A stretch of 64,000 nucleotides of DNA from Sphingobacteriales bacterium (GCA_016706405.1 JADJJT010000002.1:569445-633444), one strand, 5' to 3'. Numbered from the stretch's first letter, positions 30,001-39,000 are shown. Program-made: the numbers.

Positions 30001-33000
30001 TGCTTAAAAATGCAACCCATTTGCAGTCGGGCGAAAACCGGGCGGCTACATCAATAAAATCGCCTTTGGTGAGCGATTGGGTTTTACCAGTTTTAACCTC
30101 GATGAGTTGCAAATTACAATATTTTTTTTCGGTTTTTTTGTCAATACGGTTCAAAGCATATACTACTTTTTTCCCTGATGCCGAAAAATGGCAACCCGAT
30201 ATGGTTTGCAATTTGTATAAATCTTTTAGTTTCATTTTTGGTAGTTGGTTGTTTTTTTCTATCGCCTAAAATTAGGAATTAGTTATGATAAAAACAAATT
30301 TTGACTTCCGTGTAATTTTTAAAAACCCGCCCAAAATAAAAAATCCGGATAGAAAGCATTTTAAAGCCTCTATCCGGATGTTTAGTTTTAGTAAAAATGA
30401 AATTTATTTAAGCCATACCTTCCCAAAGTCAAAAGAACTGTTAATTGCAACTCAATATGTATTTAAAATTATCTTGCATTTTTTTAGTACTGCTTTATTG
30501 CCATTTCTAACCTCGATTTAACGGTATCGGCAAGCCTTAATGGTGCTATAACCGCAACCATATCGGCATACGAAAGTATTAACCTTTCTAACTCGTAGTT
30601 GATAATTACGTGCAGGCTTATTTTTAAGGTATTTTCGTCTATCCATTTCGATTTTTGCGAACCATGCAAGGGCTTGGTCTCCATGTATTTTCCTGTTCTG
30701 CCTTTAAAGTGCAACACTACTTGTTCGGGTTCGGCATTGTCGGGTTTGGTAACGCCGATTATGTCTTCAAAATACTCCTGCCAGTCTATTTTATTGTTTT
30801 TTTGATACGCCCCTTTTGTTTCCTCAACAGATACAATGCGGTCTATAGCCAAATTCCAGTCGTGTTTTTTCTTTTCCGGATTATAGCCAAATAAAAACCA
30901 GCGACTATTATATTGTTTTAAAAAATAGGGGTGTAGCCGAACCTCAAAAGGAATATCATTTTCAAAGGGCTGATAACTAATGGCAAGTACTTTTTTATAG
31001 AAAATGGCATTATACAATTGCCCAAGGTGCTCAATACCTTTTAGGTACTGGTTGCTGTCGAACTCCATAATAGTAGTGGGCATTTCATCAATAGCCATTC
31101 CTTGTTGCAGTTTAGGCACCAGCTCATTTACCCATTCAAATTGTGGCATACCCTTAAACTGCGAAAGTATGCCCACCGCAGCCTTTAACTGGTTAATTTC
31201 TACTTCGTTCAAAGGCATATTATTAATATAAAACGACATGTCGGCGTAGCGATAGTACACTTTTTTGCCAAACCTGTGCCTTGCCAAATCAATGCTCCAG
31301 CCTTCTTTACTTTCCATGAAGGCAATATCTTCAAATAGCTGCCTTCGGCTGATGCCGTTCGATTCCGGATCTATTTCAAGCAAGATATTTTCACATTCGG
31401 CAATCAAATCATCAATAAAATACCTTCTTCCCGGATTTCTGAAGCAGTTATCCAATACTTTGTAGCGTATAAGTGCATTTTTATTTGTAGCCATAGTGTT
31501 CTTGTTTTTTATGGTGCGGCGGGGGGGTAATTTTTGTAAATATGGGCAGAGAAGAACCCCAAGGGTTCAAACGTTTGTAGAACAGGTTGTAGGGGGGTTT
31601 TATACGACCCTGTCGGGGTCGAACCTTTTATTCTGTAGGGTTTTTCTATAAACATAAAACCCCTTCGGGGTTGGTTTGATTGGTTTTGTTTTAATTAAAT
31701 AGTGCAGCAGTTGGCGCAAAATTAATTTAAAATAATTACTTTTGTGCAGCTCTACTGCATAGTTAGATGATTACTTTGCACTCTGTTCTTTGAAAGCCTG
31801 CTACACGATATTGAATTGTGCCAACTGGAATGAATCGGTTGGTGTTCTCCGTTTCATCGGAGTATGAATGTTTTATCGGTAATTTGTTAGCTCTCGTCTG
31901 ACAGATTAAATGATACGATAATATATTAATTATTATTTCTATACATACACAAAGAATACAGCAGCAGGCTTCATTGAACCTATTTAAAAAAGTGAAACCA
32001 GCGCAAGAACATATAGACCGTATTAAAACTGCCTTTGAAAAAATGCAGTCGAAAGAAGATTTACTTCGTTTGTTAAACGAGGTAAAACCCCTTATTTATG
32101 GAAAAAAAACGGTTCCGTTTGCTTTGAAACAACTGACCTGGCACGCCAACCCTAAATTGGGTGGCAAAAGGTATGAAGCCTTTCACATCAAAAAAAAATC
32201 TGGGGCAGACCGAAGCATACACGCGCCGGTAAAAGGGTTAAAAGCATTGCAAAAAACGCTGGCGCTTATACTTCAGGCTGTTTTTGAACCGCATAATGCG
32301 GCAACGGGTTTTGTTTGGGAAAGGTCAATTGTGGACAATGCTAAACTGCATGTTGGCAGTAATTATGTGTATAATATAGACCTGAAAGATTTTTTTCAGA
32401 GTATAGACCAGGCAAGGGTATGGAAAACCCTGCAACTAAAACCCTTCAATTTGAATGAGACTGCTACGGAAAAACCTTTTTCTATGGGGTGGGGGGATTT
32501 TCAAAAAAATTATCTGAAAACAAAAAAGCCTGTAAAGTTTTATAAGGGCAAGGGAAGGGTATTCGTCAAAACACCTTTGGGTCGTCCCATTCATATGTCA
32601 AACAATTTTAACGCTGAAAAAGATGCTTATGTATTGCAGGCTGGCAGTTCATTAAGAACCCAAAAAGGTAAATCTTTAAAAAACACCCTTTGGTTGGTAA
32701 ATAAAATACCGGATACAAGCCGGTTGGGAATAGCCAATATTATCGCCTCGCTGTGCTGCACCGAAATGGAAGTGGAGCGAAAAAACGAAGCAGGCGAATG
32801 GGAAAAAGTTAAACGAAATGTATTGCCACAGGGCGCGCCTACTTCGCCAGTTATAACAAATATAGTATGCCAAAAACTCGATTACCTTCTTACAGGAGTA
32901 GCCAAACGTTTCAGGCTAAAATACAGCCGTTATGCCGACGATATTAGTTTTAGCTCTAAACACAATGTTTACAAACCGGGTAGCGAATTTATAATAGAAT

Positions 33001-36000: not shown

Positions 36001-39000
36001 GCGAAAACTGGAAATTGAGTTTGCTCCTTAACCTGCGAAACCGTATTGCAGAGGAATTAAATAAACATGCTATAAAAGAAAAATACCCAGCTATTGAGTT
36101 TAGCGGGGAAGAACTAATAAAAAGGGTAAGCTACTTAAAAATAAATACGGCTATAAAGCCAGATTTAGAAAATGAAAAAACGGCGTCTATTTTTTCAGGT
36201 GGCGAGTACGCTTCAATTTCTTTAGAACAAATTTTGTCTTTAAAATCGGTTATTGACCAAAAAATAAACGAAATAGCATGAATAAACTTTTAGTACATGG
36301 CAATAACACATCGTTTAACAGGTACGATTTTTTTACAGGAACAGAGCAGTTTGTCTTCGATATTGACATAGATAAAGATGTTGATTTGTATATAAATGAA
36401 ATTTTGGAAATGGAGATTACAGAAGGATTAAAAAAGAGAATAGAAAAAAGCGATATTGTTTTCATTAAAATTGCCTTAACCCAAAACTATTTAGAATATT
36501 TTGGTTTGAGATTAGCCTATCATATAAGGTTAGCTAAAAATTTAGGAGAAAAATCAAAAATACCAATTGTTTTTATTGCCGAAGAAAGTTTTCAATTTTT
36601 AGGCTCAACCTGCCACGAGCCATCAATATTATTTACAAAGGGTATTTATTTAATAAAGGAGACGCTGGAAGATTTAGAAGATATAAAAAACAGGTATGCA
36701 AATGGAAGTATAAAACCATTAGATGGTTATGATTCTTTTATAAATTCCATTTTAATACACCCACCTTCCAACTACAAATCCCATCATTCTATTGCCAACG
36801 AGTGGGCTATTTATCGTTGGGCTACTGCTTTACAAATAAATGACGACCAGATTCGAACCATTGAAAAAACAATAGGCAGCAATCTGTATTTTAAATATTT
36901 ACAATTTAAGTACCCAATTGCAGAGCTTTCTCCAGTTGCAGAAACTACTGAGCCAGCAAATCGGGTTGTTCCGAAAAGAGGTAATGTTTTATATATAGAT
37001 GACGAGGTGAACAAAGGATGGCATAGTATTTTTACAAAAATCTGTTCTGACAGGCTCTTTAAATCTCAATTTGAATCTATTGGGGGTGATTTTAAGAATT
37101 TAAGCAAGGAGGAGATTATCGAAAATTCGTTAGGTATGGTCAAGGGCGATTTCAATCCCGATATTGTTATTTTAGATTTCAGGCTTCATGATGATGATTT
37201 TGAAGATGCAAAATCCTTTGAACCTGCAAGACCCGAAGATGTTACTGGATATAAAATTTTAGTACAGATTAAGGCGTATAATCCTGGTATTCAGGTTATT
37301 GTTTTATCGGCAACAAATAAAATCTGGAATTTTATGGAGTTGCATGCAGCAGGCGCAGATGATTTTATCATAAAAGAATCGCCCGAACTAAGTGTTGATG
37401 AAAATTATAGCAGAAAAGCTATCGATAAAATCTACAAATCTATTGAAAAGGGGCTAACGCGAGCTAAATATTTAAAGCACGCTTTTAATTTTTTGAACGA
37501 ATCGAACGAAATTTTAGAAAACAAAAATATTCCTGATGAGTTAAAAACCACTATTAAAAAACAGCTTGAACTTTCTTATTTTCTTTTATCCCGTGCTGGA
37601 AAAGAGGAGGAGTTTGCCTATGCTTTTGTTGCGTTATACATGATAATCGAGTCAATTAATAAAGAGTTTGTTATAAAATCGTCAAATTACAAATGGATTT
37701 TTAATAATGGCGGTAATGATTTAGACCTTTTGGATTGGGGTTACAAGGAGGAAAATCAAATTTATACCAATACCAATACCCCGGTTACTGGCACTCAACC
37801 GCCAGAATGGCAAAAATTGGCAGGCTTGTATTTTCAAATTTGGAACGGCGAAGATCATGGTTTAATTAGAACGGCATATCATTTAATCAAAAAAAGGAAT
37901 GGTTTTATTCATAATGATAAGAAAATTTTGGATTATCAAGACAATAGAGGTAACTATTTGAATCACGACATATTTACACCCAACGGAACGATTAGTCTGT
38001 TTGAATGTATAGGCGAAATATTTAAATCCATTCAAACCAAAGATACCGCAATAGAAAAAAAGCCGGGAATACAATAAAACTGGTTTAAATATAACTGCAA
38101 CCCTCAAAAGATTGAAGATTGCACATAAGGATATAAACCCGAAGTGTTCAAATATTTATTTATAGTACCAAATTGCATTGGGTTTTTTATACGCCCCCGT
38201 TGGGGTCGAGCCCTTTGTTCATTGGAATTTTTCTATAATAATAAAATCCCTTCGGGGTTGATTAGGCTATATTGGTATATTTTTATCATATAAATATTAT
38301 TTGTTGTGCAGTATCAATTCACAGAACAATCCTAACTTTGCATTTGATTAAAAAAATCCTATGAGCATATTCAACCATTTTAAACATTTAAATCTTAGTC
38401 CCGGTCAAGAGGAGGCGCTAACCAAATTAGCGGCGTTCTTGGAAAGGTCCGGTACAGGTTTTTATGCTAAAAGGGTATGCAGGTAGCGGTAAAACAACCA
38501 TTTTAGCAGGTTTGGTCGAGTACCTCGCTTCTATTGAAAAAGATTTTGCCCTGATGGCACCTACCGGAAGAGCAGCCAAAGTAATAAGGGAAAAAACCGG
38601 GCAGGAGGCTTTTACTATCCACAAATCTATTTACAGCTATGATAATATGATGCCCGTTGAAGAAGGCGATTCTTTTTTTTACTCCTACAAAATCAGGAAT
38701 AATGTAGCGGTGGCTGGAAAAATTTTTATTGTGGACGAAGCTTCTATGTTGTCTGATGTTAAAAGCGAGGGCGAGTTTTTCCGTTTTGGCACCGGGCATT
38801 TATTATCCGATTTGATTAGTTACACCAGAGTTGCCCAGCCAAATGTAAATTCTAAAATTATTTTTGTTGGCGACCCCTGCCAGTTGCCACCCGTAGGCGA
38901 TAACAGCTCAAAAGCCTTTGATGCCAGCTATCTTGAAGAGAAATTTAATCTTGCCTCAGAAGAAACTGAAATGAAAGAAGTGCAAAGGCAGGGCGGCGAT

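Follow-up and report, generated by a model that had tools for sequence, protein, structure and literature searches.

A retron-like reverse transcriptase operon with a predicted two-component pathway in Bacteroidota, interrupted by an insertion sequence in a Sphingobacteriales genome

A retron-like sensor joined to a predicted two-component pathway

We analysed a 64,000-nt stretch of the genome of a Sphingobacteriales bacterium (GCA_016706405.1, JADJJT010000002.1:569445-633444; hereafter the window, with positions counted from its first letter). Between ~31.5 and 38.1 kb its plus strand carries two open reading frames (ORFs), of 850 and 599 aa, with the fragments of a small gene between them; a 336-aa gene lies directly upstream on the minus strand. 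We read this locus, with a probability of roughly 60%, as a Bacteroidota conflict operon of the anti-phage type in which a retron-like sensor is coupled to a private two-component pathway, and which has been inactivated here by an insertion sequence (IS) in its middle gene. The long ORF combines a retron-type reverse transcriptase (RT) with a C-terminal histidine-kinase-like domain, PF22561, and the 599-aa protein, referred to below as the effector, begins with an inactive receiver domain (iREC, PF22563); taken together, these domains give the locus the look of a self-contained two-component system mounted on a retron-like sensor. The initial annotation of this DNA had proposed a retron-like RT operon with receiver domains and a HEPN-type effector. 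It had recognized the RT, the receiver and the RNxxxH motif, all of which were seen again, but had overlooked both the RT-fused kinase-like domain and the iREC. Its idea of phosphorylation-type signalling appears strengthened, since the RT itself carries a domain resembling histidine kinases. The tight packing that it described is likewise present: a gap of 3 nt (34527-34529) separates the RT gene from the middle gene, which in turn overlaps the effector gene by 4 nt (36278-36281). For comparison, one genome per species was scanned for RT motifs and 80 loci were kept, almost all of them from Bacteroidota.

The reverse transcriptase and its non-coding RNA

The RT-kinase fusion ORF occupies positions 31974-34526 of the plus strand when read from the TTG codon at 31974, which gives 850 aa. 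The likelier start is the GTG codon at 31992, which agrees with database protein P0001 and falls in line with the ATG start of homologues; the protein would then be 844 aa long. The retron-type RT domain spans 31992-33500 (plus strand). A Pfam search with the long ORF yielded RVT_1, and in PADLOC the retron RT profiles, among them RT-Protease_XI (8e-99), RT-TIR_XII (9e-94), RT-Toprim_I-C (8e-89) and RT_XIII (3e-77), outscored all others by a wide margin. Among the NCBIfam profiles, all of which scored below their curated family cut-offs, those of retrons (retron-TIR, 2e-80; retron Ec67, 2e-68; retron St85, 2e-52) were matched far better than those of group II introns (2e-16) and of the defence-associated RTs (DRTs) DRT2-4 (1e-7 or weaker). 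Furthermore, the motifs NAxxH (N122, A123 and H126), DLKDFF, LPQGAPTSP, YADD and VTG are invariant in 25 homologues. By profiles and motifs, the RT is thus of the retron type. The 850-aa retron-type RT of the initial annotation, with the motifs it listed, is borne out apart from the start codon, and placement among RT clades by profile likewise falls to retrons (e-99 to e-52, against 2e-16 for group II introns and 1e-7 for DRTs). The RT is assigned to none of the 13 described retron types: the best score, from the type XI RT profile, covers just the RT portion, and a protease domain is lacking. A variable insertion between DLKDFF and LPQGAPTSP (32450-32720, aa ~160-250) occurs in some homologues and is missing from others, of ~735-745 aa, such as P0041.

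The intergenic region upstream of the RT gene is 480 nt long and contains a conserved non-coding RNA (ncRNA) element at 31785-31979 on the plus strand. The corresponding upstream regions of 23 loci were aligned and their structure was computed with RNAalifold, which gave a consensus of 39 pairs, 20 of them carrying compensatory changes. The closing stem, in which GUUCUUUGAAAGCCUGCUGC (31785-31804) pairs with GCAGCAGGCUUCAUUGAAC (31961-31979), accounts for 16 pairs, including 7 with compensatory changes. With the structure held fixed, 95.4% of the cells are paired, compared with 26-47% when the partners are slid by 1-3 columns, and the observed values were matched by 0 of 500 column shuffles. 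The sequence of the window itself folds with z = -4.85. Within the closing stem, two conserved hairpins (~31820-31866) are followed, ahead of the 3' strand of the stem, by a long hairpin (~31870-31915) with a conserved base and a tip that is different in every locus; this variable hairpin folds with z <= -1.8 in 8 of 10 loci. It is followed by a stretch rich in A and U and then by CAUAAACAAAGAAUAA (31944-31959), which is invariant and unpaired, lies right before the 3' strand of the closing stem and could be a template start or an RT-binding site. The core of CAUAAACAAAGAAUAA is complementary to UUCUUUG in the 5' strand of the closing stem, making an alternative pairing possible.

This layout, as judged from covariation, is that of a retron msr-msd transcript. 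The candidate msr-msd RNA of the initial annotation is real in this respect, with its position corrected to 31785-31979. The structured leader placed before it, from 31592 onwards, fared less well. Its two hairpins exist (31605-31621 and 31658-31672, plus strand), but they are terminator-like and lie in a spacer specific to the window. Since homologues have no counterpart of this spacer, the leader falls outside the ncRNA and was rejected as a part of it. In an Rfam scan of 31300-32200, no family scored meaningfully.

The kinase-like domain and the effector

The C-terminal part of the RT fusion (33564-34526, plus strand; aa 531-849) matches PF22561, the HisKin-conflict family, at 8e-62 and over profile positions 3-303 of 303. 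In the alignment of homologues, H531-x-P533 and H555 are invariant. PF22561 is represented by 898 clusters and is C-terminal in every representative, whether fused to an RT, to long arrays of ankyrin repeats or to an AAA domain, or encoded as a stand-alone protein.

The effector (599 aa; 36278-38077, plus strand) is composed of an iREC (aa 1-141), a helical linker with an invariant HHSxxNEW motif, a second receiver (REC, aa 233-370), a long helix and a HEPN-like domain (aa 420-590). Its AlphaFold model has a mean predicted local distance difference test (pLDDT) score of 87.4 and a predicted template-modelling score of 0.85. PF22563 matches residues 23-126, and the modelled N-terminal domain has a receiver fold without acidic residues at the strand ends, as in an iREC. 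The modelled REC has D241 and D242 after β1, D300 at the end of β3, S344 at the end of β4 and K366 after β5. Four of these residues (D241, D242, D300 and K366) do not vary among 39 divergent homologues, and the fifth, at position 344, is Ser or Thr in 13/13 sequences of the full alignment. A Foldseek search of the effector model against the PDB retrieved the receiver domains of NtrX, PorX, MtrA and Spo0F, together with the tandem-receiver protein PleD, with target-normalised template-modelling scores of 0.6-0.8. Judging from residues and model, the second receiver of the effector is intact and has all phospho-acceptor residues.

The C-terminal domain of the effector is modelled as helical with a β insert. 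All 39 aligned effectors have E458 and R540, and N541 is almost invariant among them; the 13 closest homologues all have H545. An Rx4-5H motif is found in all 39 aligned effectors, as RNxxxH in 30 and as RN/RSxxxxH in 9, and in 38 of the 43 effectors extracted from genome loci. Weak, sub-threshold Pfam matches to HEPN families (RiboL-PSP, AbiU2, Apea and Swt1; E = 0.008-0.05) were obtained for up to 7 of 17 members. A 599-aa protein with a canonical REC domain and a C-terminal RNxxxH motif, as initially annotated, is therefore what residues, model and conservation of the motif describe. Profile searches gave a mixed answer: the iREC was matched at 2e-18, but the REC (5.9e-6) and the best HEPN match (E = 0.008) both remained below the cut-off. 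The C-terminal domain diversifies strongly, while the rest of the protein is conserved; the version found in the window also occurs beside distant RTs, and the closest RTs are accompanied by other versions. Pfam searches with the isolated C-terminal domain and with the linker, as well as PADLOC profiles against the effector, gave no match, and NCBIfam returned receiver families only, far below their cut-offs.

The middle gene and its disruption

The middle gene is present in two pieces. Its 5' fragment (34530-34868, plus strand), delimited by DNA comparison with the intact genes of loci L085 and L086 and by the family alignment, encodes part of a pseudo-receiver, and its 3' fragment (35929-36281, plus strand) is 100% identical to positions 3688-4040 of L085. 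Between them lies an IS of 1060 bp on the minus strand (34869-35928) with fragmented transposase frames. The IS has inverted repeats of 21 nt (34873-34893 and 35905-35925) and is flanked by a 9-bp target duplication, CTAAAAATC, at 34860-34868 and 35929-35937. A second copy at 2417-3627 is 93.7% identical and has longer transposase ORFs of 145 and 149 aa. Moreover, three contigs of other metagenomic origin, L085, L086 and L087, share 99.3-100% identity with the window, and L085 and L086 have an intact 227-aa middle gene and no IS. Inverted repeats, target duplication, a second copy and an empty site are thus all present, as expected of an IS insertion. IS1, our first guess at its family, was dropped, and the concatenated transposase fragments of the 34869-35928 copy had no Pfam match. 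A plasmid collection searched with the IS DNA yielded no match either.

A further defect lies near the IS junction. In a 70-nt patch at 34700-34765, the window differs from L085 and L086 by 19 mismatches and 5 gaps, with runs of C, G and A, stop codons and a broken frame, which looks like an assembly or polishing error. Overall, the window copy is probably non-functional.

The family of the middle protein comprises 162 clusters and has no Pfam domain. Its invariant residues are E7, D8, C55, H59-R60-S61-A62, F84-F85-S86-G87-G88 and N105-S106, and its C-terminal half is conserved and helical. A model with a pLDDT of 82.6 shows a five-stranded α/β N-terminal half that resembles receivers or flavodoxins; the best Foldseek matches are weak (E = 0.02-0.2) and include receiver domains and lobes of periplasmic binding proteins. 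In the model, His59 occupies the end of β3, the position of the acceptor Asp in receivers, and the invariant sequence there is His59-Arg60-Ser61, with no Asp. Because His59 takes the place of the acceptor Asp, we regard the protein as a pseudo-receiver and not as a receiver. The small, IS-disrupted, receiver-like gene that had been annotated here is accordingly disrupted by the 1060-bp element and receiver-like in its predicted fold, but lacks the acceptor Asp. No match was found in a PDB sequence profile search with the middle protein, in PADLOC with the middle-gene fragments or in NCBIfam with the intact protein. Database protein P0359, named as coming from a Sphingobacteriales metagenome-assembled genome, is a fragment of the middle gene.

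Recurrence and architectural variants

The gene association recurs beyond the window and is widespread in Bacteroidota. Fusions of RT and kinase-like domain are abundant: nearly all of the best 120 database clusters combine PF00078 with PF22561, and the order of a divergent WYL regulator gene, the RT-kinase gene, the 227-aa gene and the iREC-REC gene is identical in L001, L003 and L004. The kinase-like domain was found in 40 of the 80 loci, and a receiver effector follows downstream in 38 of these 40, the other two being on cut contigs. The recurrence in other genomes for which the initial annotation had suggested a survey is thereby borne out. A match to the hidden Markov model of the middle protein lies between the kinase and effector genes in 25 loci. 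The distribution of the family is patchy.

Several loci depart from the common arrangement. In L006 (6001-10978), whose RT is 73% identical to that of the window, RT, PF22561, iREC and REC proteins are encoded by four consecutive genes. In L088 (6001-11712), ankyrin repeats replace the RT, and a homologue of the middle protein (hhalign probability 99.4%) and an iREC-REC protein are encoded downstream. In view of L006, L088 and the fusion variants of PF22561, the conserved core is, on comparative grounds, the kinase, adaptor and effector, with the RT and its ncRNA as one of several interchangeable sensors. Conversely, L010 has a closely related RT (79.6% identity over the N-terminus), a WYL gene and the ncRNA, but no kinase domain, and a 260-aa protein is encoded downstream instead. 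Fusions of PF22561 to ankyrin arrays or to an AAA domain were seen in the L088 locus and in proteins P0465, P0429, P0409, P0419 and P0389. We do not claim a fusion of the middle protein to the iREC protein of L006, the N-terminal ~200 aa of which aligned with the middle family at 6% probability (hhalign).

Proposed mechanism and alternatives

In the pathway that we propose, the RT would copy part of the ncRNA into a product resembling multicopy single-stranded DNA (msDNA); the complex of RT and nucleic acid would serve as the infection sensor. Disturbance of the complex would switch on the fused kinase, which may autophosphorylate on H531 or H555 and pass the phosphoryl group to D300 of the effector receiver. 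The phosphorylated receiver would then free or dimerise the predicted HEPN RNase, leading to cleavage of cellular or phage RNA and to growth arrest. Acting as docking partner, decoy or phosphatase, the pseudo-receiver encoded by the middle gene and the iREC probably determine the threshold and would thereby tune or insulate the pathway, while the WYL protein would control transcription of the operon. To our knowledge, the route from a disturbed msDNA complex to a toxic effector has been worked out for only a few retron types, in which it is direct contact.

A number of observations weigh against this reading. Its weakest step is the kinase. A PDB sequence profile search with the kinase-like domain retrieved no solved kinase, and a Pfam search that included all kinase-domain members at E values up to 10 gave only PF22561 and neither HisKA nor HATPase_c. 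Alignment by hhalign to a thin alignment of three canonical kinases, drawn from one kinase in L055 and PDB alignments, reached a probability of 0.7%; the stretch so aligned is the N-box and G1 region, and no conserved N-box Asn could be aligned. The kinase label rests on the curated Pfam name and on context. For the HEPN-like domain, a PDB sequence profile search gave no match, and in the fold search with the whole effector model, which was swamped by receiver matches, all 50 matches listed were receiver-domain proteins and none was a HEPN protein; this assignment draws on the motif and on the sub-threshold matches. The kinase domain found no match in a plasmid collection and a single weak one in a phage collection. 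The window copy, being disrupted, is silent on activity in its host and allows no inference about it. The phage match (MT837349.1, 2822-3718; 26.6% identity over 97% of the domain) belongs to a 7-kb record of human faecal origin, listed as 'Bacteriophage sp.' and lacking annotation.

These observations leave room for a pathway without a phosphorelay, in which PF22561 would be a non-catalytic scaffold or some other ATPase and direct contact between proteins, or a small nucleotide that binds the iREC or receiver-like modules, would switch the effector; the RT product could supply the ligand. The missing independent similarity of PF22561 to canonical kinases, including an N-box Asn that can be aligned, speaks for such an arrangement, and the two receiver-fold modules without an acceptor Asp, namely the iREC and the His59-bearing middle protein, could be ligand-binding or docking modules. 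On the other hand, D241, D242, D300 and K366, with Ser or Thr at position 344, are maintained in very divergent homologues, a pattern difficult to account for unless the receiver is phosphorylated. By this contextual argument, a kinase is required for a receiver whose phospho-acceptor residues have all been kept despite deep divergence; PF22561, with its two invariant His residues, is the only conserved candidate and the only constant partner. We therefore consider a pathway without phosphotransfer unlikely and prefer the retron-like sensor with a two-component pathway. A bolder form of the preferred reading would make the operon a complete private phosphorelay from a nucleic-acid sensor to an RNase, with the His59-bearing 227-aa protein as a new relay or threshold component between the kinase and Asp300; this form is decidedly speculative.

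A different possibility concerns the product of the RT, which might not be branched msDNA. The enzyme could act in the manner of a DRT, the ncRNA templating repeats or unbranched cDNA, and the kinase would report synthesis. In the alignment of 23 loci no invariant G directly follows the closing stem, the nearest being in AUUGA, 9 nt downstream; the retron profile scores stay under the NCBIfam family cut-offs; and type XI, whose RT profile is the best here, has no recognisable ncRNA module in Mestre et al. 2020. Nevertheless, the ncRNA has the retron layout, with covarying closing repeats and internal hairpins immediately upstream of the RT gene, and the RT, with invariant NAxxH and VTG, is far nearer to retron than to DRT profiles, which makes a DRT-like mode of action quite improbable. 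Least probable of all is a non-immune role, as a housekeeping or stress two-component system or as a mobile island's addiction module: the members of the family come largely from a single phylum, and WYL regulators of the PafBC type control DNA-damage responses, but the loci stand repeatedly beside known or candidate defence genes, the C-terminal domain of the effector diversifies against a conserved remainder, the sensor is swapped between RT and ankyrin repeats, the distribution is patchy and the window copy has been lost through IS insertion.

If the preferred reading is correct, a retron-type RT that carries a kinase-like domain and is paired with a receiver-gated RNase would make the signalling step of a retron measurable by phosphotransfer assays and point mutants, and would be a rare case of His-Asp signalling within an anti-phage system. 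The core of kinase, adaptor and effector, which accepts ankyrin repeats in place of the RT, would constitute a portable signalling cassette with interchangeable sensors.

Relation to described systems

Pfam curates PF22561 as a 'histidine kinase domain observed in conflict contexts' and PF22563 as an 'inactive receiver domain'. The window matches both and shares with these conflict families the gene order, the C-terminal kinase-like domain, a protein of ~225 aa and the iREC-REC-effector arrangement; apart from the IS disruption there is no structural difference. The two families are said to stem from work published by Burroughs and Aravind in 2020 and by Aravind and colleagues in 2022.

The RT lineage, too, has a name. 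Toro (bioRxiv 2026, 10.64898/2026.05.14.725207) describes TXI_C2like, a lineage restricted to Bacteroidota and regarded as candidate type XI-like retrons, whose RT is protease-less and ends in a 'variable C-terminal extension'. In this lineage, position -1 is mostly taken by a WYL gene, an accessory protein that no Pfam family matches is abundant, and a1/a2 repeats flank an ncRNA with three stem-loops; the preprint nowhere mentions a kinase, a receiver or HEPN. The window resembles TXI_C2like in the features described, namely host phylum, protease-less RT with extension, WYL gene and ncRNA. It differs in that its C-terminal extension is PF22561 and its partners are the pseudo-receiver and the iREC-REC-HEPN-like protein. 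With both domains curated in Pfam and a name given to the RT lineage in the preprint, the initial annotation's label of a candidate undescribed system does not hold; the operon family is already catalogued, defined by computation only, and the searchable literature turned up no experimental work on an operon of RT-kinase and receiver-HEPN genes. New here are the link between TXI_C2like and the conflict kinase and iREC, the ncRNA covariation for this sub-lineage, the His-bearing pseudo-receiver, the fission and ankyrin variants, and the evidence that the window copy is broken. If it holds, the bolder phosphorelay reading would join the TXI_C2like and the conflict kinase/iREC descriptions, which do not cite each other, and would give retron biology an output that can be read biochemically, as phosphotransfer. 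For annotation, the 'variable C-terminal extension' and 'unknown accessory protein' of TXI_C2like can be interpreted as components of a predicted two-component pathway.

None of the 13 retron types of Mestre et al. 2020 has a kinase, a receiver or WYL among its partners, which agrees with the earlier remark that receivers are not among the described retron partners. Types XI (RT-protease), XII (RT-TIR) and I-C (RT-Toprim), which supply the best RT profiles, have in common with the window the C-terminal fusion of an output domain to the RT. In the window, however, the fused domain is a kinase-like signalling module, and the effector is a separate protein, reached via a receiver. Type IX retrons (Mestre et al. 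2020) likewise combine a retron RT with a predicted RNase of the HEPN type, whereas the HEPN-like domain of the window is placed behind an iREC and a REC, and the PADLOC RT_IX profile scores 6.5e-48 against 8e-99 for type XI. As in HK853-RR468 and PleD, the receiver of the window has all phospho-acceptor residues, and the tandem of an inactive and an active receiver resembles PleD. In contrast to canonical two-component systems, the kinase-like partner is cytoplasmic, fused to an RT and without a detectable HisKA or HATPase_c domain, and the output is a predicted RNase instead of a DNA-binding or cyclase domain.

Transcriptional control and genomic setting

The gene upstream of the operon (30484-31494, minus strand) encodes a WYL-WCX transcription regulator of 336 aa (Pfam WYL 7.6e-10 and WCX 1e-6; PADLOC WYL 2e-23), in line with the divergent WYL regulator annotated there initially. 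A homologue is upstream and divergent in L001, L003 and L004. Homologues found by tblastn occur in 58 of the 80 loci; mostly they are divergent and directly precede the RT gene, and some are located elsewhere or are co-directional. An alignment of the upstream regions of 12 loci revealed a conserved palindrome, GTGCAG-n5-CTGCA (31744-31760, plus strand), and an invariant TTACTTTG (31771-31778, plus strand) ~7 nt before the ncRNA. We infer that the former is the WYL operator and the latter a -7 promoter box of the Bacteroidota type; the WYL protein probably represses the operon via the palindrome.

The 30-42 kb segment has a guanine-cytosine content of 31-41%, compared with 43-49% in its flanks, and a TOTE / PDC-M16 two-gene system follows directly downstream of the operon (38464-42040; Pfam and PADLOC). 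The low-GC segment runs into this system, and the locus therefore appears to lie in an island of conflict genes. The TOTE / PDC-M16 genes encode a superfamily 1 helicase with TBP-TOTE domains and a TPR-S1/CSD protein; the helicase ORF starts at profile position 35, and the DUF3127 gene of L001 and L004 is absent from the corresponding place in the window. The flanks are of housekeeping type; upstream they include two ORFs, one phosphoglycerate-kinase-like and one of 663 aa, which were identified by eye in translation. At other loci, the operon is accompanied by helicase and restriction-endonuclease-domain genes (L004) and by DarTG (L088). In L001, the closest complete locus, a prokaryotic Argonaute gene with a Piwi domain and an McrBC pair (150-5528) lie immediately upstream of the WYL gene.

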